A program made the position numbers and the translations under genes. From Coriobacteriaceae bacterium (lineage in GTDB: Bacteria; Actinomycetota; Coriobacteriia; Anaerosomatales; SLCP01), in the NCBI GenBank assembly GCA_003563465.1, contig PWVH01000014.1:1-32634 (forward strand): DNA of 32,634 bases, read 5' to 3'. Below, in pieces: positions 24,651 through 32,634 of the stretch. The first letter of the stretch is position 1. The number at the start of each line of letters is the position of its first letter. The notes beneath the pieces are model-generated. The model searched no databases. It was not told the origin of the DNA and saw only the letters and a program-made list of their open reading frames with translations.

Positions 24651-24680
24651 CCAAAATTTCTAGCTTGGATTACTCTCGCT

Positions 24681-24686
24681 TATAAT
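24681..24686 (+). promoter_or_regulatory. Candidate -10 element (perfect TATAAT) in the AT-rich spacer upstream of selD
   Basis: A TATAAT in the locally AT-rich gap 24651-24733, within an otherwise roughly 63-65% GC sequence. No convincing -35 at 16-18 nt. Confidence 0.4.
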
Positions 24687-24733
24687 AGAAGGACGCGAGA
24701 CGGTTAAGACCGAAAGCGGGGGACGCTGCGACA

Positions 24734-25765
24734 GTGAGCGATCCGATTCGCCTCACCCAGATGTCTAGCAAGGCCGGTTGAGCTGCGAAGTGGGGTCCGG
24801 AGGACCTCGCCAACGTGCTCGCTTCGCTCTCACCTCAGGAGTCCGAGCGGCTCATGGTGGGTTTCGAGACCAGCGATGACGCCGCTGTCTACCTGCTCGG
24901 CGACCGCGCTGTTCTGCTCACCATAGACTTCTTCACGGCCATGGTGGACGACCCTTACGACTTCGGGCGAATCACGGCTGCCAACGCGCTATCCGACATA
25001 TATGCGATGGGTGGCCGGCCTCTTGCGGCACTCAACATGCTCGCCTTTCCCTGCTCGATGGACCCGGACGTGGTTGCCCAGGTGCTCCAGGGTGGCGCGG
25101 CGACCTGTGCCGAGGCCGGGGTGCTCGTGGTCGGGGGGCACACGATCGACGACAAGGAGCCGAAGTTCGGGCTTGCGGTCATGGGGGAGGCCGATCCGGA
25201 TGCGGTCGTGCGCAACGTCGGCGCGCGCGAAGGCGACTCTCTCGTGCTCACGAAGCGCATCGGGGTCGGGATCATGAATACCGCACTCAAGGCCGAACTC
25301 GAGACAGAGGAGACGCTTGCTGATGTCGTCGAGTCCATGGCGCACCTGAACAAGACTGCTGCCGAGGCCATGATCGAGATCGGGGTGAACGCAGCTACGG
25401 ATGTGACCGGGTTCGGACTTCTGGGCCACGTCCGGGAGATGGCACTCGGTAGCGGTGTCGCCGCGGAAATCGAGCTCGATGCGGTACCTGTCTGGCCGAA
25501 GGCCTACGAATACGCGAGCCAAGGTGCCAAGCCGGGACGAACCCTCGACGTGATCGACGCACTCGACGAGCATGTCGACTGGGGCCCCGCCGATCAGGCA
25601 TGGAAAGACGTTCTTTGCGACCCGCAGACCAGCGGAGGGCTGCTGATGGCTGTGTCGCCCGATCGCGTCGATGATCTCTTAGCATCGCTCGAAGCCAAGG
25701 GCGAGACGGCGGCGTTGGTCGGCCACATCATTGCGGGTGAACCGGGCGCTATCGTCATAGTCTAG
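24734..25765 (+). CDS. selD: Selenide, water dikinase (selenophosphate synthetase) SelD, selenocysteine-containing form (Sec at TGA 24779-24781)
   Basis: The ORF track starts at 24815, but the same frame upstream reads V-SDPIRLTQMSSKAG-U-AAKWGPEDLANV, i.e. the conserved SelD N-terminus (RLTQ...G-[C/U]-x-x-K) with TGA at the catalytic Cys/Sec position. The rest is typical SelD (FETSDDAAVY, GGHTIDDKEPKFGLAV). Confidence 0.9.
24792..24808 (+). promoter_or_regulatory. Putative bacterial SECIS hairpin for selD
   Basis: GGGGTCC (24792-24798) pairs with GGACCTC (24802-24808), including one G.U pair, with a G-rich apical loop GGA. The loop lies about 20 nt after the UGA, the same spacing as in the TlpA-like gene. 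Confidence 0.55.
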
Positions 25766-25806
25766 TGCGGCATCGAGACCGGCGCAGAAGGAAAGGGACT
25801 GAGGCC

Positions 25807-26145
25807 ATGGCCAAGCGCGTGCTCATAGTGACGGATCGGATCGGACGCGGTGATGAAGAGCTTGGCTGGGTGTTGATGCGCAGCTTCTGTCACTCGCTCG
25901 CACGCAACGAACGTAAGCCGGCTTCGGTGATGCTCATGAACGAGGGCGTGCGTCTGGCGTGCGAAGGGTCTGAGGTGCTCGACGACCTGCGCCTGCTCGT
26001 CGAGAAGGGTGTCGCGGTCAAGGCATGCGGCACCTGTCTGGACTTCCTCGGCTTGAAAGAGTCGCTGGCTGTGGGTGAAGAGGGGACGATGATCGATTCC
26101 GTCGCCGCGCTTCTCGGCCGAGATGACGTAGTAACGATCTCGTAG
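25807..26145 (+). CDS. DsrE-like protein corresponding to the C-terminal domain of the long YedF-type selenium metabolism proteins
   Basis: RVLIVTDRIGRGDEELGWVLMRSF...VMLMNEGVRLACEGSEVLDDLRLLVEKGVAVKACGTCLDFLGL, the DsrE-like pattern ending in CGTCL. Lies between selD and selA. Confidence 0.75.
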   Translation: MAKRVLIVTDRIGRGDEELGWVLMRSFCHSLARNERKPASVMLMNEGVRLACEGSEVLDDLRLLVEKGVAVKACGTCLDFLGLKESLAVGEEGTMIDSVAALLGRDDVVTIS

Positions 26146-26232
26146 GAGATGAGGGAGATTGAGGTAATAGTCCCGCTTGGCGTGTCGAGATCGGTGGATC
26201 GACGGCTGCGCGCAGCCTGCCCTTCGAACAGG

Positions 26233-26238
26233 TAGAAT
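26233..26238 (+). promoter_or_regulatory. Candidate -10 element (TAGAAT) 7 nt upstream of the selA ATG (possible leaderless transcript)
   Basis: TAGAAT at 26233-26238, ATG at 26246. No Shine-Dalgarno between them. Confidence 0.3.
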
Positions 26239-26245
26239 CACTCTC

Positions 26246-27646
26246 ATGGACACTCAAGAACGTCTCAGACGGCTTCCCAAGGTCGACGATCTGCTCAGGC
26301 ACTCTCGCGTGCTCGAGATGCTCGAAGACCACCCGCGCCCTCTCGTGCTCGAAGTTCTGCGCGAGTCACTCGACCTCACGCGCAAACGCTTGATTGCCGA
26401 CGAGCGCGCATCCTATGACGAGGCCACGTTGCTCGCGGAGGCTGAAACGCGGCTCGCACTGAAGTCGCTGCCGAGTCTGCGCCGCGTGATAAACGCGACC
26501 GGGATCATCGTTCACACGAACCTCGGCAGGTCCATCCTCTCGAAGAAGGCGGTAGCAGCCGTCACGGAGGTCGCAGGCTCCTACTCGACGCTCGAGTACG
26601 ACACGGCTTCGGGCGAACGGGGCAGCCGTCATGTCCACTGCGAGGAGCTGCTTTGCCGCTTGACCGGCGCCGAGGCGGCCATGGCCGTCAACAACAACGC
26701 TGGCGCAGTCATGATTGCACTCGCCGCCTTCGCCAGGGGCAAAGAAGCGGTGGTCAGCCGCGGCCAGCTCGTGGAGATAGGCGGCTCCTTTCGCATACCC
26801 GACATCATGCGAGAGTCCGGCGCGACCATGGTCGAAGTCGGCACCACCAACAAGACCCACTTGCGCGACTACGAAAACGCCATAACGGAGCGCACGGGTC
26901 TCATCCTCAAGGTGCACTCGAGCAACTTCCGCGTGGTGGGCTTCACGCAAGAGGTCGGATTGAGCGAGCTGGTGGAGCTCGGGGCCAGGCACGGAGTGGT
27001 GGTCTTCGAGGATTTGGGCTCTGGGGTGATCATCGACCTGCGGCGTTACGGTCTGCCATACGAGCCCACGGTAGCCGAGTCTGTGGCGACGGGCGCCGGA
27101 CTGGTCTCTTGCTCGGGTGACAAGCTTCTAGGAGGGCCTCAAGCTGGAATTCTTGTGGGCAGTGCCGAGATCATCCAGCGCCTTAAGAAGCATCCCATGG
27201 CCCGTGCCTTGCGCCTCGACAAGATGACGCTGGCTGCCCTGGAGGCCACGCTTCGCACCTACATCGACACCGAAGCGGCGCTTGCCGAGATTCCGACACT
27301 TCGCATGCTCGTCATGCCGCCCGCCGAGGTGGCCGAGCGTGCGGCAGCCCTCGCTTCCCGTATCGCGGAGGAGTGTGGGAACGGAGTCGAGACCGACACC
27401 GCGGGTGATGTCTCGCGGGCCGGAGGTGGGTCGCTGCCGCTGGCTGATATCCCGACCACGGTCGCTCGCGTCAAGCCCCGAAGCTTCTCGGTGACGGAAC
27501 TGGAACGCCGTCTGCGCCTCGGCGAGCCGCCCATAGTGGCACGAATCAAAGACGAACGCCTGCTTATCGATCCGCGCACGCTGTGCGCGGGAGAGGACGC
27601 CGAAGTCGTCTCACGGGTGGCGTCGGTTCTTTCGAACGAGGCGTGA
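26246..27646 (+). CDS. selA: L-seryl-tRNA(Sec) selenium transferase SelA
   Basis: N-terminus MDTQERLRRLPKVDDLL aligns with the SelA N-terminal domain. PLP-lysine context CSGDKLLGGPQAG. INATGIIVHTNLGRS. Confidence 0.95.
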   Translation: MDTQERLRRLPKVDDLLRHSRVLEMLEDHPRPLVLEVLRESLDLTRKRLIADERASYDEATLLAEAETRLALKSLPSLRRVINATGIIVHTNLGRSILSKKAVAAVTEVAGSYSTLEYDTASGERGSRHVHCEELLCRLTGAEAAMAVNNNAGAVMIALAAFARGKEAVVSRGQLVEIGGSFRIPDIMRESGATMVEVGTTNKTHLRDYENAITERTGLILKVHSSNFRVVGFTQEVGLSELVELGARHGVVVFEDLGSGVIIDLRRYGLPYEPTVAESVATGAGLVSCSGDKLLGGPQAGILVGSAEIIQRLKKHPMARALRLDKMTLAALEATLRTYIDTEAALAEIPTLRMLVMPPAEVAERAAALASRIAEECGNGVETDTAGDVSRAGGGSLPLADIPTTVARVKPRSFSVTELERRLRLGEPPIVARIKDERLLIDPRTLCAGEDAEVVSRVASVLSNEA

Positions 27647-27651
27647 GCGGC

Positions 27652-29568
27652 ATGCCGTCGCTTGTCCTCGGTACCGCCGGTCACATCGATCACGGCAAGT
27701 CCACGCTCATCAAGGCGCTCACCGGCACCGATCCCGATCGCCTCGCTGAAGAGAAGGCCCGCGGCATCACCATCGAACTCGGCTTCGCGCAGCTCGTACT
27801 ACCGAGCGGGCGCACGATGGGCGTGATCGATGTGCCAGGTCACGAGCGCTTCGTCAGGCACATGGTTGCTGGCGCCACGGGCATCGATGTCGTGCTCCTA
27901 GCGGTAGCGGCAGACGACGGTGTGATGCCACAGACTCGCGAGCATCTCGCGATTATCGATCTTCTGGGAGTAGAACAGGGTGTCGTGGCGCTCACCAAGG
28001 CCGATCTCGCCGATTCCGAGTGGCTCGAGCTGGTCGCCGAGGAAGTTCGCTCGCTGCTGGGAGGCACCTCGATTGCGGGCGCTCCCGTCGTGCCGGTTTC
28101 TGCCATCGCTAGTGAGGGACTCACCGATCTGCTGACCGCACTCGATGCGATTGCTGCAGAGGCTCCCACTCGTCAAGCGAATCTGCCCATGCGTCTTCCG
28201 GTCGACCGGGTCTTCACCATCGCAGGGGCGGGCACGGTAGTCACCGGCACGCTCTGGTCCGGTTCTGTAACCAAAGACGAGCAGTTAGAAGTCCTGCCCG
28301 CCGGTCATGAGGGTCGCGTACGAGGTGTGCAGGTGCACTCGGAGAGCGTTTCTAAGGCCACCGCCGGTCAGCGCGTGGCGCTCAATGTCGCCGGTCTCGA
28401 CAGAGACGACATCGCTCGGGGAGACGTGATTGCCGCGCCAGGCACTCTGGGAGTCACCGACCGCTTCGATGCTCGCTTTACTTACCTTGGGATTCCGGGG
28501 GAGGACAAGGTCTTCGAGAGCGGCACGCGCGTGCACGTCCACCATGGCACTCGCGAAGTGATCGGCAGGGTGCTGCTGATGGACTCACCGATGCTTGCAC
28601 CAGGCGATTCTGGCCTTGCCCAAGTTCGCCTGGAGGAGCCGCTCGTGCCTCGCTACGACGACCGCTTCATCGTGCGGTCCTACTCGCCCGTATACACGAT
28701 CGGTGGCGGGCTGGTGCTCGACGTCCTGCCCCCTCGCCGCACGAACCTGCGGGCGCACGAGCGCGAGTTGCTCGAGGCTCTCATCGCGCACGACCTCTCG
28801 GCGGCCAACAGCGGGCTGCTTGCTTCGCGTGGCCTGCCTATGACCTCGGCAGAGGTCGCGGCGGCGCTCGGTGTACCGCGGGCGCAGGTCGCCGACGAGC
28901 TCAACCGCGCCGATTTCGCCCGGCTGAAGATCGGCGGAGAGACCGCCTTCATCACATCCGGCGCGCTGGAGGCGTTCGTGGTCATGATCGAGCGAGAACT
29001 GCTCTCGTTTCACGAGGCCAAACCGAAGGCCACCGGTGTCGGAAAGGCAGCGCTGCGCAGTCGCGTGGACCGCAGGTTGACACCCAGGGCTTTCGACGCC
29101 CTGCTCGAAGTCGCTGTCGGGCGGGAAGTCGCCGTGGTCGAGAAAGGTACCGTGCGACATCCGAAGGCCGCCGTTTCGGCGCTTGCCGAGGAGCAAGCGG
29201 CCGAGGTGGCGCTGCGGCCCCTGGTGGCGCAAGACGGTTTCGCTCCAAGGACCGTGGCCGCGTGGTCGGCCGAAGCAGGGGTCGATCCCGGGGTGGCCCG
29301 CAAGGTTCTCAACCGCATGGCATCCGAGGGCAAGATCGTGCGTGTCAGCTCTGATCTGTACTTCGACGTGGGCGCAGTCGATGCCATTCGGCAGCGGATC
29401 GTCGCCCACCTGGGTCAGCACGGTAGCGCGCCGACCTGGGAGCTGCGCGACGTCATCGGCGTGAGCCGCAAGTACGTGGTCCCGCTGCTGGAGCACTTCG
29501 ACTCCATACGCCTGACGAGATTCGAAGGCGACCAACGTTCGCTACGCAGGGATTCGAACCAGGGCTGA
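27652..29568 (+). CDS. selB: Selenocysteine-specific translation elongation factor SelB
   Basis: GTPase motifs GTAGHIDHGKST, DVPGHERF and TKAD, followed by EF-Tu-like domains II/III and a long winged-helix C-terminal extension. Starts 6 nt after the selA stop. Confidence 0.95.
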   Translation: MPSLVLGTAGHIDHGKSTLIKALTGTDPDRLAEEKARGITIELGFAQLVLPSGRTMGVIDVPGHERFVRHMVAGATGIDVVLLAVAADDGVMPQTREHLAIIDLLGVEQGVVALTKADLADSEWLELVAEEVRSLLGGTSIAGAPVVPVSAIASEGLTDLLTALDAIAAEAPTRQANLPMRLPVDRVFTIAGAGTVVTGTLWSGSVTKDEQLEVLPAGHEGRVRGVQVHSESVSKATAGQRVALNVAGLDRDDIARGDVIAAPGTLGVTDRFDARFTYLGIPGEDKVFESGTRVHVHHGTREVIGRVLLMDSPMLAPGDSGLAQVRLEEPLVPRYDDRFIVRSYSPVYTIGGGLVLDVLPPRRTNLRAHERELLEALIAHDLSAANSGLLASRGLPMTSAEVAAALGVPRAQVADELNRADFARLKIGGETAFITSGALEAFVVMIERELLSFHEAKPKATGVGKAALRSRVDRRLTPRAFDALLEVAVGREVAVVEKGTVRHPKAAVSALAEEQAAEVALRPLVAQDGFAPRTVAAWSAEAGVDPGVARKVLNRMASEGKIVRVSSDLYFDVGAVDAIRQRIVAHLGQHGSAPTWELRDVIGVSRKYVVPLLEHFDSIRLTRFEGDQRSLRRDSNQG

Positions 29569-29697
29569 ACCCGGATGACTCTGCACGTCAAGCCCGTGGC
29601 CTCACGGTGCGCCGTTTGCCGGTCGAGCTCGAGGTTGCCGACCCGGAATCTGATTCATGTGCTGCGCTGGGAAGCGGGATCGCTCTGAATCCAAGTA

Positions 29698-29727
29698 TTG
29701 ACGTAGCTTATCCCTAAGATGTACGCT
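29698..29727 (+). promoter_or_regulatory. Candidate promoter for the tRNA: -35 TTGACG, 18-nt spacer, -10 TACGCT
   Basis: TTGACG at 29698-29703 and TACGCT at 29722-29727 (TAnnnT). The predicted start falls about 7-9 nt downstream, at the mature 5' end (G29736). Confidence 0.4.
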
Positions 29728-29735
29728 GGTTATGT

Positions 29736-29831
29736 GACTGGTTGAGTCGGCTGGCGCCGATCGCGGAGTGCAAATCCGTTGGGCTCACCGCAGAGGTCAG
29801 CTGTTCGGTTCGATTCCGAAACCAGTCTCCA
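29736..29831 (+). tRNA. tRNASec-like tRNA with cysteine identity elements (anticodon GCA, discriminator U73, CCA encoded), in the position usually occupied by selC
   Basis: Hand fold: acceptor GACTGGT(T) / GA / D stem GTCGGC - loop TGGC - GCCGAT (6 bp, 4-nt loop) / C / anticodon stem GCGGA - loop GTGCAAA - TCCGT / 24-nt variable region with stem GCTCACC..GGTCAGC / T arm (T)TCGG-TTCGATT-CCGA(A) / ACCAGTC / T / CCA. The acceptor plus T branch totals 12 bp (7/5 or 8/4). Confidence 0.75.
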
Positions 29832-29953
29832 ACCTCTTGACAAGTCCGACTCCCTGATGCTCGCCGGTTCCTTTCGGCCATGCGCGCGTTCACTTAGTAA
29901 CCTCCCCCGCCTGAATCGAAAAGCACGCGCTGTCAGAGATTGGACATATGTTA

Positions 29954-29959
29954 TAGAAT
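29954..29959 (+). promoter_or_regulatory. Candidate -10 element (TAGAAT, extended TATAGAAT) upstream of yedE
   Basis: AT-rich patch at 29940-29975. A weak -35-like CTGTCA sits 18 nt upstream. Confidence 0.35.
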
Positions 29960-29979
29960 GCATAAGGCAATAGGATAGG

Positions 29980-29998
29980 AGTCCTTGTCCAGTCCTTG
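29980..29998 (+). promoter_or_regulatory. Direct repeat AGTCCTTG-N3-AGTCCTTG (11-nt period) in the yedE leader
   Basis: AGTCCTTG at 29980-29987 and 29991-29998, between the candidate -10 and the GGAGGAG RBS (30004-30010). Confidence 0.35.
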
Positions 29999-30014
29999 AG
30001 AACGGAGGAGTTCT

Positions 30015-31271
30015 ATGACCCAGCGTAGGGTAATCGGCCCCACGGCATGGATCGTGGGCGCAGCGGGCCTGTTCATCGGGGCCCTCGCTGGCTGGCTGGT
30101 CAGCCAGGGCAACCCCGGCAACATGGGCCTGTGCATCGCATGCTTCTGGCGCGACATCGCTGGGTTCTTCGTGGGAGGGGTCTCGAATCAAGCGGCCGTC
30201 GCGTACATCCGTCCCGAGATAATCGGGATCATCTTGGGGGCTCTGGGCGCCGCCATCGTGACCAAGGAGTACAAACCGCGTGGCGGCAGCGCGCCTCTGT
30301 TGCGTTTTGTGATGGGATTCATCTTCATGAGTTCGGCCCTGGTCTTCCTCGGCTGTACGGTACGTGCCTGGGTACGTCTGGGTGGCGGAGACCTCACGGC
30401 GCTCTGGGGGCTCCTCGGGATCGTCATCGGTGTCGGTGTCGGCATCGTCATTCTCAAGAGCGGCTATAACCTGGGTCGCGCTAAGGGCGCGCCCGCCTGG
30501 ACCGGGTGGATCGTCACCGGGATTGCGGTCATCTTGCTGGCGTTTGCGCTCTGGACGCAGTTCGGGACCAAGCCGGAGTTCGCTACGCTCACCCCGGCGA
30601 ATGCCAGGGCGGTCATCCCAGGTGAAGTCGTCGTGGCGCCCGCGCCCGACGGTGACGGTCTCACTGTACTGAGGCCTGCCGACGCAACCATTGTCGACGG
30701 CGCGGTCGTTGCAGCCGACGGAGAGGTGCTTGCGGATGCCGACAAAGTCGCATCCACTGGGCCGATGCCTGGCGGAAGGCGCGCACCTTTCTTCATTTCG
30801 CTCGCTGCTGGGCTGGCTATCGGTGTCGTCGCACAGCGCAGCCGTTTCTGCTCGGTCGGCGGCATCCGTGACGCGATTCTCATCAGGCGCTTCGACCTGC
30901 TGTTCGGAGTGATCGGGCTCGTGATCGGCGCGACCGTGGTCAACATGATTTTCGGTCAGTACAATCTTGGGTTCACGGGTCAGCCGGTGGCCCACAACGA
31001 CGCACTCGGTAACATCGCCGCGATGGTGATAGCCGCGTTGGCGGCCGTCATGCTCGGAGGTTGCCCGATGCGTCAGATGATTATGGGCGCCGAGGGTGAC
31101 GCCGACGGCGCCGCTGCGGTGGTCGGCATGGTGATCGGCGCAGGTTTCACCCACTGGGCTGGCTATGCGTCCTCGCCGGCGGGCTTGGCCGACAGGGCGT
31201 GGCCTGCACTCGGTGTCATGGCGGTCATTCTTGCGGCCATCGCGCTTGCGAAGCGTGCCAGGGCCGCATAG
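30015..31271 (+). CDS. yedE: YedE-family putative selenium/sulfur compound transporter (YeeE/YedE fold)
   Basis: Signature N-terminus GNPGNMGLCIACFWRDIAGFF, second-half motif RSRFCSVGGIRD, and about 10 TM segments. Confidence 0.88.
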   Translation: MTQRRVIGPTAWIVGAAGLFIGALAGWLVSQGNPGNMGLCIACFWRDIAGFFVGGVSNQAAVAYIRPEIIGIILGALGAAIVTKEYKPRGGSAPLLRFVMGFIFMSSALVFLGCTVRAWVRLGGGDLTALWGLLGIVIGVGVGIVILKSGYNLGRAKGAPAWTGWIVTGIAVILLAFALWTQFGTKPEFATLTPANARAVIPGEVVVAPAPDGDGLTVLRPADATIVDGAVVAADGEVLADADKVASTGPMPGGRRAPFFISLAAGLAIGVVAQRSRFCSVGGIRDAILIRRFDLLFGVIGLVIGATVVNMIFGQYNLGFTGQPVAHNDALGNIAAMVIAALAAVMLGGCPMRQMIMGAEGDADGAAAVVGMVIGAGFTHWAGYASSPAGLADRAWPALGVMAVILAAIALAKRARAA

Positions 31272-31288
31272 GGCGAAGGGAGAGAACG

Positions 31289-31498
31289 TTGAAGGAAGTC
31301 GATGCACTCGGACTCTCTTGTCCGATGCCGCTGATGCTTACCAAGAAGGCTCTCGAGGAGAACCCCGGCGAGATACTCGTACACGTTGACAGCGGGACGG
31401 CGAAGCAGAACGTCGTCGGCCTGCTCAGCGACTACGGTTTCACTGTGAGTGTCGAGCAGACCGGCGAGGAATACCGGATCAAAGGGATGCGTGCCTGA
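31289..31498 (+). CDS. TusA/SirA-like sulfur (selenium) carrier protein (YedF N-domain equivalent)
   Basis: LKEVDALGLSCPMPLMLTKKAL carries the CPxP motif of the TusA family. TTG start with GAAGGGAGAG upstream. 69 aa. Confidence 0.82.
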   Translation: MKEVDALGLSCPMPLMLTKKALEENPGEILVHVDSGTAKQNVVGLLSDYGFTVSVEQTGEEYRIKGMRA

Positions 31499-32052
31499 TG
31501 CTGTTCGGACGCAAGAAGAAACAGACGGAAGCCCCGGACGCCGAGGAGGCGTTCGGGCTCTTCCTCTTCGACGAAGTGCCTCACGCGCTTGCTGCCGAGC
31601 GTGCACTCAAAGCTGCGGGATACGACATCACGCTGGTGGCCCCGCCACCTCACCTGCGTGCCGGATGCGACCTCGCTGTCGCGCTCCCGCGGGTCGAGCA
31701 CGTGGGAGCCGAGCGCGTGCTTGTCGAGGCGGGCGTGCACTTCAAGGAGTGGGTGAACGACGTCGAAGGCATCTCTAAGATATGCGACCTCGTTACCACC
31801 GTGGACTTCGGCGAGTGGCTGATGGTGCGGTCCGGGAACATGAAGATCGTGATCGAGAAGGCGACTGGCACGATCGTGAACACCTCGGGCGGCGGGTGTC
31901 CGGACATCCCGTACTTGAATCTGGAGCTGGTGGGCGTGCCTCTCGAGGATGCTCCTCGGCCCAAGGAACTCGGCTACACGCTCTGCGGCCTCATGCTCGA
32001 TCGTGCCTACCTCGAAGTGAAAGCGCAGCTCGAGGGGGGTGCAACCGAATGA
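31498..32052 (+). CDS. DUF3343 (putative Se/S carrier-like) domain fused to an uncharacterised Cys-containing C-terminal domain
   Basis: The N-terminal FGLFLFDEVPHALAAERALKAAGYDITLVAPPPHLRAGCDLAV matches the DUF3343 pattern. The C-terminal roughly 110 aa carry GGGCPDIPY and TLCG. The ATG overlaps the tusA-like stop (TGATG). Confidence 0.65.
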   Translation: MLFGRKKKQTEAPDAEEAFGLFLFDEVPHALAAERALKAAGYDITLVAPPPHLRAGCDLAVALPRVEHVGAERVLVEAGVHFKEWVNDVEGISKICDLVTTVDFGEWLMVRSGNMKIVIEKATGTIVNTSGGGCPDIPYLNLELVGVPLEDAPRPKELGYTLCGLMLDRAYLEVKAQLEGGATE

Positions 32053-32634
32053 GCCTCCTCGTAGTCGCGACGTATCCGGTGAGCGGTGGTCCGGTGCTCG
32101 AAGGCGACGTGACCCTCGAGCCTGACGGCACGCTGCTGATACAGGGGGCACGCGTACCCGCGTCTCAGGGCACCTCGGCAATGCTTGGCGCGGCCTGTCA
32201 GGTGGCCGGCCACCTGGGAGTCAAACCGCCTCGGGCGATTGTCGGAGGCGACATCGGTCGCGGCGACGGGACGCGAGCCGTGTTCGCGCGCCTAGCCGAG
32301 GCATGTGCCACGCACCGACCGACCGTCATCGCTTTCCACTACATGCAGCCGATCATGGCGCTCATGAAGCACGCGGTCGAGGAACTCGCATCCTGCGCCG
32401 CCGATGCTACGTTGGTCGCCGACGCTGGGGGCATGTACGCCGCGAAGGCCGTAGGTCTTGCGCCACGGTTCGAGCTCATGACGCCGGACGTGGGTGAGGT
32501 CGGCTTCCTTGCCGATCCGTGCGTGACCCATCCTGCCTACGTATCGCATTATCTGTTTGGGACCAATGGCTTCGACCCTGTCGAGCTTGCGCGCAAGGCT
32601 ACGGAGACCGGCGGCTCCTCGCGCGTGCTGTTGA
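32049..32634 (+). CDS. Uncharacterised protein, 5' part only (runs off the window); weak resemblance to ribokinase-like / YjeF-C (NAD(P)HX dehydratase) folds
   Basis: Not in the supplied ORF track. ATG 32049 overlaps the upstream stop (ATGA). My translation gives 195 codons without a stop: MSLLVVATYPVSGGPVLEGDV...TLVADAGGMYAAKAVGLAPRFELMTPDVGEVGFLADP... GC3-rich codons match neighbouring genes. Confidence 0.6.
   Translation, partial: MSLLVVATYPVSGGPVLEGDVTLEPDGTLLIQGARVPASQGTSAMLGAACQVAGHLGVKPPRAIVGGDIGRGDGTRAVFARLAEACATHRPTVIAFHYMQPIMALMKHAVEELASCAADATLVADAGGMYAAKAVGLAPRFELMTPDVGEVGFLADPCVTHPAYVSHYLFGTNGFDPVELARKATETGGSSRVLL

Follow-up and report, generated by a model that had tools for sequence, protein, structure and literature searches.

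In this study, we analyzed a 32,634-nt stretch of DNA from a Coriobacteriaceae bacterium (hereafter the window), which represents the entire contig PWVH01000014.1 (C164) of the assembly GCA_003563465.1 (G000; 1.8 Mb in 167 contigs, 61% GC, 91% complete), and in particular the selenium genes located towards its 3' end. The genome is most likely one of the Coriobacteriia, given a match of 76% identity to a protein of Anaerosoma tenue and the label Anaerosomatales on related metagenome-assembled genomes. The open reading frame (ORF) listing together with NCBIfam and Pfam matches revealed nine elements, all on the + strand: selD, encoding a selenocysteine (Sec)-containing selenophosphate synthetase (24734–25765), a gene for a YedF protein that is composed of the DsrE-like half only (25804–26145), selA, encoding Sec synthase (26243–27646; 598 bits to TIGR00474 and 506 bits to PF03841), selB, encoding the Sec-specific elongation factor (27652–29568; 368 bits to TIGR00475, with the winged-helix domains PF09106 and PF09107), a Sec-shaped tRNA (29736–29831), yedE (30015–31271), a stand-alone tusA-like gene (31289–31498) and two genes whose products we refer to as P7 (31498–32052) and Kin (32049–32634). 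This order had been described in an earlier note on the window and was confirmed, along with the overlaps TGATG (31496–31500), where the tusA-like gene stops and the P7 gene starts, and ATGA (32049–32052), where the P7 gene stops and the Kin gene starts, whereas the gap between the yedE stop codon (TAG, 31269–31271) and the TTG start codon of the tusA-like gene at 31289, which stands behind the ribosome-binding site GGGAGAG, is 17 nt and not 18 nt. The best reading of this arrangement is that it is a single contiguous selenium-utilization locus, whose left half (selD, the DsrE-only YedF, selA, selB and the tRNA, which is of the tRNAReC type) makes and inserts Sec. Its main interest is the pair formed by P7 and Kin, and the two tRNA genes, one of the tRNAReC type and the other the canonical tRNA-Sec gene selC, that flank the module of yedE, tusA-like, P7 and Kin genes.

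The window encodes the N-terminal 195 of the 299 residues of Kin before the contig ends within the gene, and the remainder was found on a second contig of the assembly, C57 (6795 bp), which when reverse-complemented overlaps the window over 656 nt (31979–32634 with C57:6140–6795) at 97.1% identity, the overlap reaching both contig ends. The break between the two contigs is probably an assembly break through strain variation, with two strains having been co-assembled. C57 has the full 299-residue Kin gene and, 65 nt on and on the same strand, a tRNA-Sec(UCA) (75.9 bits to Rfam RF01852), after which comes a convergent ORF of 481 residues that we take to be photolyase-like, judging by eye from its N-terminus. 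The join of C57 to the window can be considered real biology because one contig of a related member of the Coriobacteriia (DASSAH010000006.1, locus L021) has the whole order on a single piece: selD, selA, selB, a 96-nt tRNA(GCA), yedE, tusA, P7, Kin and tRNA-Sec(UCA). A distance of 6–8 kb between selD and Kin on one contig recurs in four sampled genomes of this family (G123, G195, G207 and G213) and in G039, which is from a different family of the order; in the majority of the remaining families, the two genes are not neighbors.

We identified loci encoding Kin by scanning one genome per species, which yielded at least 586 loci, and all counts given below out of 80 refer to the best 80 of them. 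Those 80 loci are from Coriobacteriia, many Dehalococcoidia, Moorella and other Clostridia, Syntrophales, Smithella, Desulfobacteraceae, Calditrichia, Planctomycetia, Leptospirales, a gammaproteobacterial metagenome-assembled genome (MAG), Nostoc and Calothrix. In 74 loci the flank 5' of Kin exceeds 700 nt, and in every one of them a P7 gene is situated immediately 5' of the Kin gene. The sample of 251 Coriobacteriia species gave 39 with both Kin and the C-terminal domain of P7, one with Kin alone (at a contig end), none with P7 alone and 211 with neither (p = 5e-45). In addition, about 40 protein clusters (470–590 residues), one of them from a Candidatus Adiutrix MAG, have the two P7 domains (PF11823 and PF26554) and the Kin domain (PF01256) in a single chain, and these natural fusions are evidence of a physical partnership between P7 and Kin. 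The AlphaFold2 model of one such fusion (P0394) had a mean predicted local distance difference test (pLDDT) score of 86.9 and a predicted template modeling (pTM) score of 0.87 despite a low-confidence linker of ~40 residues, as compared to a pTM of 0.54 for P7 alone, which suggests that P7 would dock on Kin in a defined way in the predicted structure. Judged by gene content, P7 and Kin behave as one functional unit and an obligate pair. Kin can have other fusion partners, as its C-terminus is fused to a TusA-like protein in three of the 80 loci (L066, L072 and L074, whose Kin ORFs have 363–379 residues). One further locus, L025, was considered as a P7-Kin fusion on account of a 409-nt gap, and was rejected as such since it has two separate ORFs.

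P7 is composed of a DUF3343 (Se_S_carrier) domain (residues 21–85; 52.2 bits to PF11823, threshold 25) followed by ~95–100 further residues that form a second domain with a Cys-containing loop. The second domain corresponds to PF26554 in the precomputed Pfam matches for the window protein (P0121) and for all of its 120 relatives; our local Pfam scan of P7 gave no match to PF26554, the model probably being absent from that copy of the database. The earlier note had pointed to Cys motifs in P7 that looked conserved, and an alignment with 35 relatives determined that three Cys residues are invariant: Cys57 in the DUF3343 domain (RAGCDL), Cys134 (SGGGCPDIPYLN; GGGCPDIP motif) and Cys163 (TLCG). 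The AlphaFold2 model of P7 alone had a mean pLDDT of 80, and a Foldseek search of the Protein Data Bank (PDB) with it returned nothing at E <= 1e-3, with generic ferredoxin-like or ACT matches only. More information on Cys134 came from the Dehalococcoidia, some of which have a second, diverged module of P7, Kin and YedE-like genes in which the Cys134 codon is replaced by an in-frame TGA, so that the motif reads ISGGGUPDIPY/W. This replacement was checked by translation at L070 (11944–12470) and L035 (13261–13800), and the same split-match pattern was observed at L040, L056 and L067. The exchange of Cys and Sec at an invariant position typically marks a residue with a catalytic redox role, and Cys134 is likely to be one; from its sequence, the GGGUPDIP form of P7 in the Dehalococcoidia resembles a carrier that is itself a selenoprotein. 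The genome of the window also has a second DUF3343 protein, which is stand-alone (C61:6235–6432, minus strand, in an 87-residue frame; 57.9 bits to PF11823).

The earlier note had guessed a kinase-like fold for the last ORF of the window, which was borne out, and had left the ORF without a family, which was not, as Kin is a weak member of PF01256 with a ribokinase fold. Its close homologs have 295–299 residues, are publicly annotated as "NAD(P)H-hydrate dehydratase" or "sugar kinase", and pass the PF01256 model weakly (36–48 bits, threshold 27). They do not reach the cut-off of the NAD(P)H-hydrate dehydratase (NnrD) model TIGR00196 (129.85 bits), three homologs (P0001, P0025 and P0114) scoring 41–47 bits and the C57 copy 45.8 bits. 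In a sequence profile search of the PDB, the C-terminal nucleotide-binding part of Kin alone could be aligned (to ThiM, 3dzv, at 1.5e-7, and to Nnr, 2ax3, at 7.7e-5), and in a fold search an AlphaFold2 model matched NnrD structures (TM0922 and YxkO), ThiD, PdxK and ribokinase in Foldseek at E values of ~1e-6. The motifs that Kin retains are HY, ADAGxMYAxK, TPDxGExxFLAD..HP, KGxxD and EAIGGTGD, the last of which is invariant and represents the anion hole and catalytic Asp motif of ribokinase-type kinases. A C-terminal pair of Cys residues, mostly in the form LCxWSGxC (hereafter CxWSGxC), is present in 58 of the 80 loci, and the C57 copy ends in NLCEWAGAC. Kin resembles the NnrD/ribokinase superfamily (ThiM, ThiD and PdxK) in its fold and GGTGD motif, but differs from NnrD in its score below the equivalog cut-off, the absence of a sequence match for its N-terminal substrate half, the absence of an NnrE partner, its CxWSGxC tail, and its constant pairing or fusion with a Cys/Sec carrier protein. 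A bifunctional Nnr is encoded elsewhere in the same genome (C81:2844–3683, in a 527-residue frame; 187 bits to TIGR00196), because of which the public names for Kin are probably wrong, a probable misannotation that touches several hundred genes. The family is small: of the 1.84 billion cluster representatives scanned exhaustively with HMMER, only 209 were relatives at E <= 1e-3. On these sequence comparisons, we consider Kin to be a distant paralog of NAD(P)HX dehydratase and not the housekeeping NnrD. An in-frame TGA in the Kin gene of one genome (G129) was considered as a Sec codon and rejected, as it is the stop codon of a variant with a short tail.

The P7-Kin pair is in turn linked to YedE. 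A yedE gene was found 5' of the pair in 61 of the 65 loci with enough flank, in Actinomycetota, Chloroflexota, Clostridia, Thermodesulfobacteriota, Calditrichia, Planctomycetia and others, which, together with the constant pairing of P7 with Kin, indicates that the last two genes of the window are not passengers, as the earlier note had supposed in treating them as members of the module. In the 251 Coriobacteriia species, Kin and YedE occurred together in 37, Kin alone in three, YedE alone in 21 and neither in 190 (Fisher p = 9e-26). Thus the pair travels with YedE, yet a third of the YedE-bearing species are without it. Linkage to the Sec genes was also evident at the level of the locus. In 27 of the 80 loci, from several phyla, there is a selD, selA, selB or tRNA-Sec/tRNAReC gene no more than 10 kb away, and this number increases to 43 when the C-terminal half of YedF is counted. 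A tRNA-Sec gene is located 3' of Kin, within ~1.2 kb, at L013, L018, L021, L029, L036, L044, L074 and L077, as well as on C57. In terms of whole genomes, selD was identified above the cut-off in 81 of the 90 Kin-bearing genomes (38/40 in the Coriobacteriia and 43/50 in other lineages). Weak "SelD" matches 6–8 kb downstream in Coriobacteriia loci were rejected as evidence of linkage, as they fall inside an ORF of 752 residues, which we read by eye as presumably PurL from the ORF and from the AIR-synthase relatives of SelD.

Two Sec-shaped tRNA genes bracket the yedE module. The one after selB (29736–29831; 96 nt by ARAGORN, 49.3 bits to Rfam RF01852, gathering threshold 47) had been counted in the earlier note among the Sec decoding genes, and it is present and Sec-shaped, but it is not an ordinary selC. 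ARAGORN and Infernal agree on its 8-bp acceptor stem, 4-bp T stem, GCA anticodon (loop GUGCAAA), U73 and encoded CCA. The same genome also has a normal 74-nt tRNA-Cys on contig C12 and the canonical tRNA-Sec(UCA) behind Kin (C57:5664–5760; 1669–1761 on the minus strand of L003). In an alignment with relatives, U73 was present in all GCA copies and G73 in all UCA copies. A tRNAReC (selC*) is Sec-like, has at least 80 nt, a GCA or UCA anticodon and a discriminator U, and is found beside a canonical tRNA-Sec (PMC13582414, citing Vargas-Rodriguez et al. 2018). The 96-nt tRNA falls within this operational definition, being Sec-shaped with a GCA anticodon and U73 and coexisting with a canonical tRNA-Sec. 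Its peculiarity is that it takes the usual selC slot after selB, with the true selC (UCA, G73) being behind Kin, an arrangement that is the same in L021. Long GCA/U73 tRNAs also adjoin the module in one Actinomycetota MAG (L024) and two Chloroflexota MAGs (L027 and L034). The locus thus represents a natural case of a tRNAReC-type tRNA and a canonical selC on either side of a putative selenium-uptake module. Potentially, in this family of Coriobacteriia, transcription of the module could determine how much Sec is inserted relative to Cys according to selenium supply, since two putatively competing UGA decoders are kept apart by it, with tRNAReC being behind selA and selB and tRNA-Sec being behind the module.

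YedE was confirmed to be a YeeE-fold membrane protein, as the earlier note had claimed, by matches to PF04143 and to TIGR04112, the equivalog for the putative selenium channel (355.3 bits, cut-off 200). The TIGR04112 match is in two stretches parted by an insertion of ~55 residues (approximately residues 192–246, window 30588–30752), which an alignment with the YedE of L025 placed in the central loop between the two YeeE-type halves and which is rich in Ala, Val, Asp and Gly. The two-stretch match is common to most YedE proteins of this order. YedE proteins with a single-stretch match (430–490 bits) occur in other families of Coriobacteriia, mostly without P7 and Kin. To the TsuA/YeeE model NF052577, the YedE of the window scored 22.8 bits, far below the cut-off of 400.

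The selD gene (384.6 bits to TIGR00476, cut-off 125) is itself a selenoprotein gene, with an in-frame TGA (24779–24781) in the motif SSKAGU-AAK, in which the N-terminal Sec is followed by the catalytic Lys. Its start codon is GTG at 24734, with ATG at 24761 being a possible alternative, and 3' of the TGA is a stem-loop of -26.7 kcal/mol (z = -2.0). The gene that follows, for which GTG at 25765 is an alternative start, matches positions 87–194 of the YedF model TIGR03527 (120.5 bits) and PF02635 (22.3 bits), and retains the CGxC motif as CGTC (ACGTCL). The TusA-like protein, which has 69 residues and a CPxP motif in the form LSCPMP, matches PF01206 (58.7 bits) and positions 1–63 of TIGR03527 (47 bits). 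The two domains of YedF are accordingly not in one polypeptide in the window, being found in the separate genes at 25804–26145 and 31289–31498, and no full-length YedF was found elsewhere in this 91%-complete genome. The earlier note had interpreted this as a split YedF. The two halves of the profile do match two genes, but the TusA-like protein is a regular member of the module even where a full YedF is present. It was found within the module in 68 of the 80 loci, between yedE and P7 in the Coriobacteriia and a few others and directly 3' of Kin elsewhere, in which case a full-length YedF is often next, followed by selD. At L035, L040 and L070, the stand-alone TusA-like gene persists with a complete YedF directly behind it. 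The TusA-like protein of the window groups with such stand-alone copies from other phyla, matching them more closely (E 5.7e-13) than it matches the N-terminal domain of YedF (E 3.1e-07). As judged from these comparisons, the unusual trait of the locus is not a simple split; it is a YedF that appears to have been cut down to its DsrE half and is sited between selD and selA.

Taken together, the comparisons show that the genes for a YeeE-fold channel, a TusA-like protein, a carrier with two Cys/Sec domains and a kinase-fold enzyme whose phosphoryl-transfer motif is intact make up a conserved and translationally coupled unit, which is often linked to selD, selA, selB and selC. A selenium-delivery interpretation of these findings is plausible from the identities and neighborhoods of the genes. 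On balance, we favor the view that the right half of the locus (yedE, tusA-like, P7 and Kin, with the canonical selC behind them) is probably an accessory relay that captures selenium and delivers it towards SelD. In this proposed relay, whose direction of transport, selenium species, order of steps and phosphorylation target of Kin we infer, a scarce selenium species would be captured and handed to SelD at the level of selenide or perselenide. YedE, as a YeeE-fold channel with a conserved Cys, would admit the selenium species across the membrane, and a chain of thiols would pass it from the Cys of the TusA CPxP motif to Cys57 in the DUF3343 domain of P7, and from there to Cys134 in the loop of the second domain. 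Kin, with its GGTGD motif and, in most loci, its C-terminal CxWSGxC dithiol, would process the species at the Cys134 loop, spending ATP or ADP so that the bound selenium would be activated for thiol reduction or transfer. NnrD phosphorylates a hydroxyl, driving dehydration. One option is that Kin phosphorylates, in a similar manner, the Se-OH of a thiol-selenite adduct, which would enable its elimination or reduction. The C-terminal Cys pairs of mercuric reductase act as a swinging arm, and by analogy only, the C-terminal dithiol of Kin could be a swinging arm that helps to reduce and release the selenium. The DsrE-like YedF or the TusA-like protein would then pass the selenium on to SelD. More tentatively, P7 and Kin might together represent a previously unrecognized ATP-dependent selenium-activating enzyme, in which Kin would carry out phosphoryl transfer to a chalcogen, either inorganic or protein-bound, on the Cys/Sec loop of P7; this is a possibility that we rate well below the relay itself. 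If true, the path from a selenium channel (YedE) to SelD would thereby gain its first biochemically defined step.

Several observations weigh against a role in selenium delivery. In Methanococcus maripaludis, deletion of yedE caused no clear selenium phenotype in a 2024 study (PMC11097638), and YedE has been proposed as a possible exporter (Lin et al. 2015, PMC5322559). The relatives of TusA, DsrE and YeeE are classic sulfur-relay proteins. The genome-level association of Kin with selD is weak, with selD being found in 38/40 Coriobacteriia species with Kin as compared to 169/211 without it (p = 0.02), and in 8/9 Dehalococcoidia species with Kin as compared to 99/142 without it. Only 16% of the Coriobacteriia species that were sampled have the module, and only 6% of the Dehalococcoidia species. 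Lastly, yedE, P7 and Kin occur without selD in Nostoc sp. FACHB-152 (L057), Calothrix sp. NIES-2100 (L078) and a gammaproteobacterial MAG of 4.3 Mb (L068), the two cyanobacterial genomes being of 8.6 and 10 Mb and one of them nearly complete. Regarding the association with selD, the gene is so common in both classes (207 of the 251 Coriobacteriia species, 82%, and 107 of the 151 Dehalococcoidia species, 71%) that its genome-level co-occurrence with Kin says little, and since such selD-rich classes give little power, we relied on the linkage at the level of the locus. The rarity of the module indicates that it is accessory and not a general step of selenium use. As for the carriers without selD, none of the three has a TusA neighbor and their Kin proteins are without the C-terminal CxWSGxC pair, and they may represent a functionally different branch with another substrate. 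With respect to the refuting conditions set in the earlier note, co-occurrence of the last two families is strong with yedE but weak with selD in the selD-rich classes, and the suggested uptake and hand-off of selenium to SelD survives in the linkage of neighboring genes, though not as a strong association with selD across genomes or in every carrier.

The alternative that fares best is a sulfur module, in which the substrate imported and relayed by YedE, the TusA-like protein, P7 and Kin would be thiosulfate or a persulfide, in the manner of YeeE/YeeD (TsuA/TsuB), with their proximity to the sel genes being due to shared regulation or chemistry. We consider this unlikely, but it draws on the sulfur-relay relatives noted above, on the match of YedE to PF04143 and weakly to the TsuA model NF052577, on the presence of DUF3343 in organisms that have no selD (Lin et al. 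2015, PMC5322559), and on the carriers without selD in Nostoc, Calothrix and the gammaproteobacterial MAG. These points have to be set against the 355 bits that YedE scores to the selenium-linked TIGR04112 as compared to 22.8 bits to the TsuA model (cut-off 400), the physical linkage to selD, selA, selB or tRNA-Sec genes in 27 of the 80 loci from several phyla, the presence of selD in 81 of the 90 Kin-bearing genomes, the position of selC 3' of Kin in nine loci, and the carriers without selD being a variant that has neither TusA nor the Cys tail of Kin.

A still less likely explanation is selenium detoxification, in which YedE would export an excess of the element, with P7 and Kin serving to sequester or convert reactive selenide. 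An exporter role for YedE was raised by Lin et al. 2015 (PMC5322559), and genes resembling arsenic-resistance genes, as judged by eye from the ORFs, lie 5' of the module in some relatives (L008). However, the tight coupling of the module to selD, selA, selB and selC suits supply more than disposal, yedE mRNA is increased under selenium starvation in M. maripaludis (PMC11097638), and the SelD of the host is itself a selenoprotein and so needs a secured supply of selenium. That Kin is a plain NnrD or sugar kinase whose position at the locus is incidental is very improbable, as the public names, the PF01256 score above the gathering threshold and the NnrD structures among the top fold matches are outweighed by the TIGR00196 scores of 41–47 bits (cut-off 129.85) with alignment of the C-terminal nucleotide half alone, the true 527-residue Nnr elsewhere in the genome, the adjacency or fusion of Kin to P7 in all cases, and the small size of the family (209 representatives among 1.84 billion).

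If the relay interpretation is correct, the locus would be of relevance to the wider question of trace-selenium acquisition by bacteria and its safe delivery to selenophosphate synthetase, with no selenium-specific transporter demonstrated in any organism and no selenium-specific delivery pathway shown (PMC11097638). YedE, YedF and DUF3343 were predicted to be selenium genes by Lin et al. 2015 (PMC5322559), who already noted the adjacency of YedE, a SirA/TusA-like protein and DUF3343 in Slackia heliotrinireducens, a member of the Coriobacteriia, and made no mention of a kinase-like partner or an extra domain in P7. The same families are present here beside selD, selA and selB, and the differences are the second domain of P7 (PF26554) with its invariant Cys loop, the obligate partner with a ribokinase fold, and the YedF that is a DsrE half. 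A full-text literature search, whose coverage of subscription journals was thin, found no paper on the P7-Kin pair. The locus puts this conserved pair of enzyme and carrier, which appears to be unstudied, between YedE as the candidate channel and the Sec machinery. A further comparison can be made to the YeeE/YeeD (TsuA/TsuB) system, in which a YeeE-fold membrane protein with a conserved Cys is likewise adjacent to a small TusA-like cytoplasmic partner. The locus differs from that system in the low score of YedE to the TsuA model (22.8 bits as compared to the cut-off of 400), in the addition of P7 and Kin, and in its linkage to the sel genes.

With respect to expression, the Rfam scan at gathering thresholds gave no riboswitch or leader between the tRNA gene and yedE. 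This spacer has one weak promoter-like site on the + strand, found by a consensus scan (CTGTCA-18 nt-TAGAAT, 29930–29959), which is the sole such site in the spacer and is not statistically distinctive, two having been found in 8.2 kb as compared to 0.9 expected. From its position, this site may be the start of a separate transcription unit of yedE, tusA-like, P7 and Kin, possibly extending to selC. In some Coriobacteriia relatives the module is 3' of genes that resemble those for an ArsR regulator and an ACR3 arsenite carrier (5581–7870 in L008, 5' of yedE), identities that we presume from the ORF sizes and N-termini alone.

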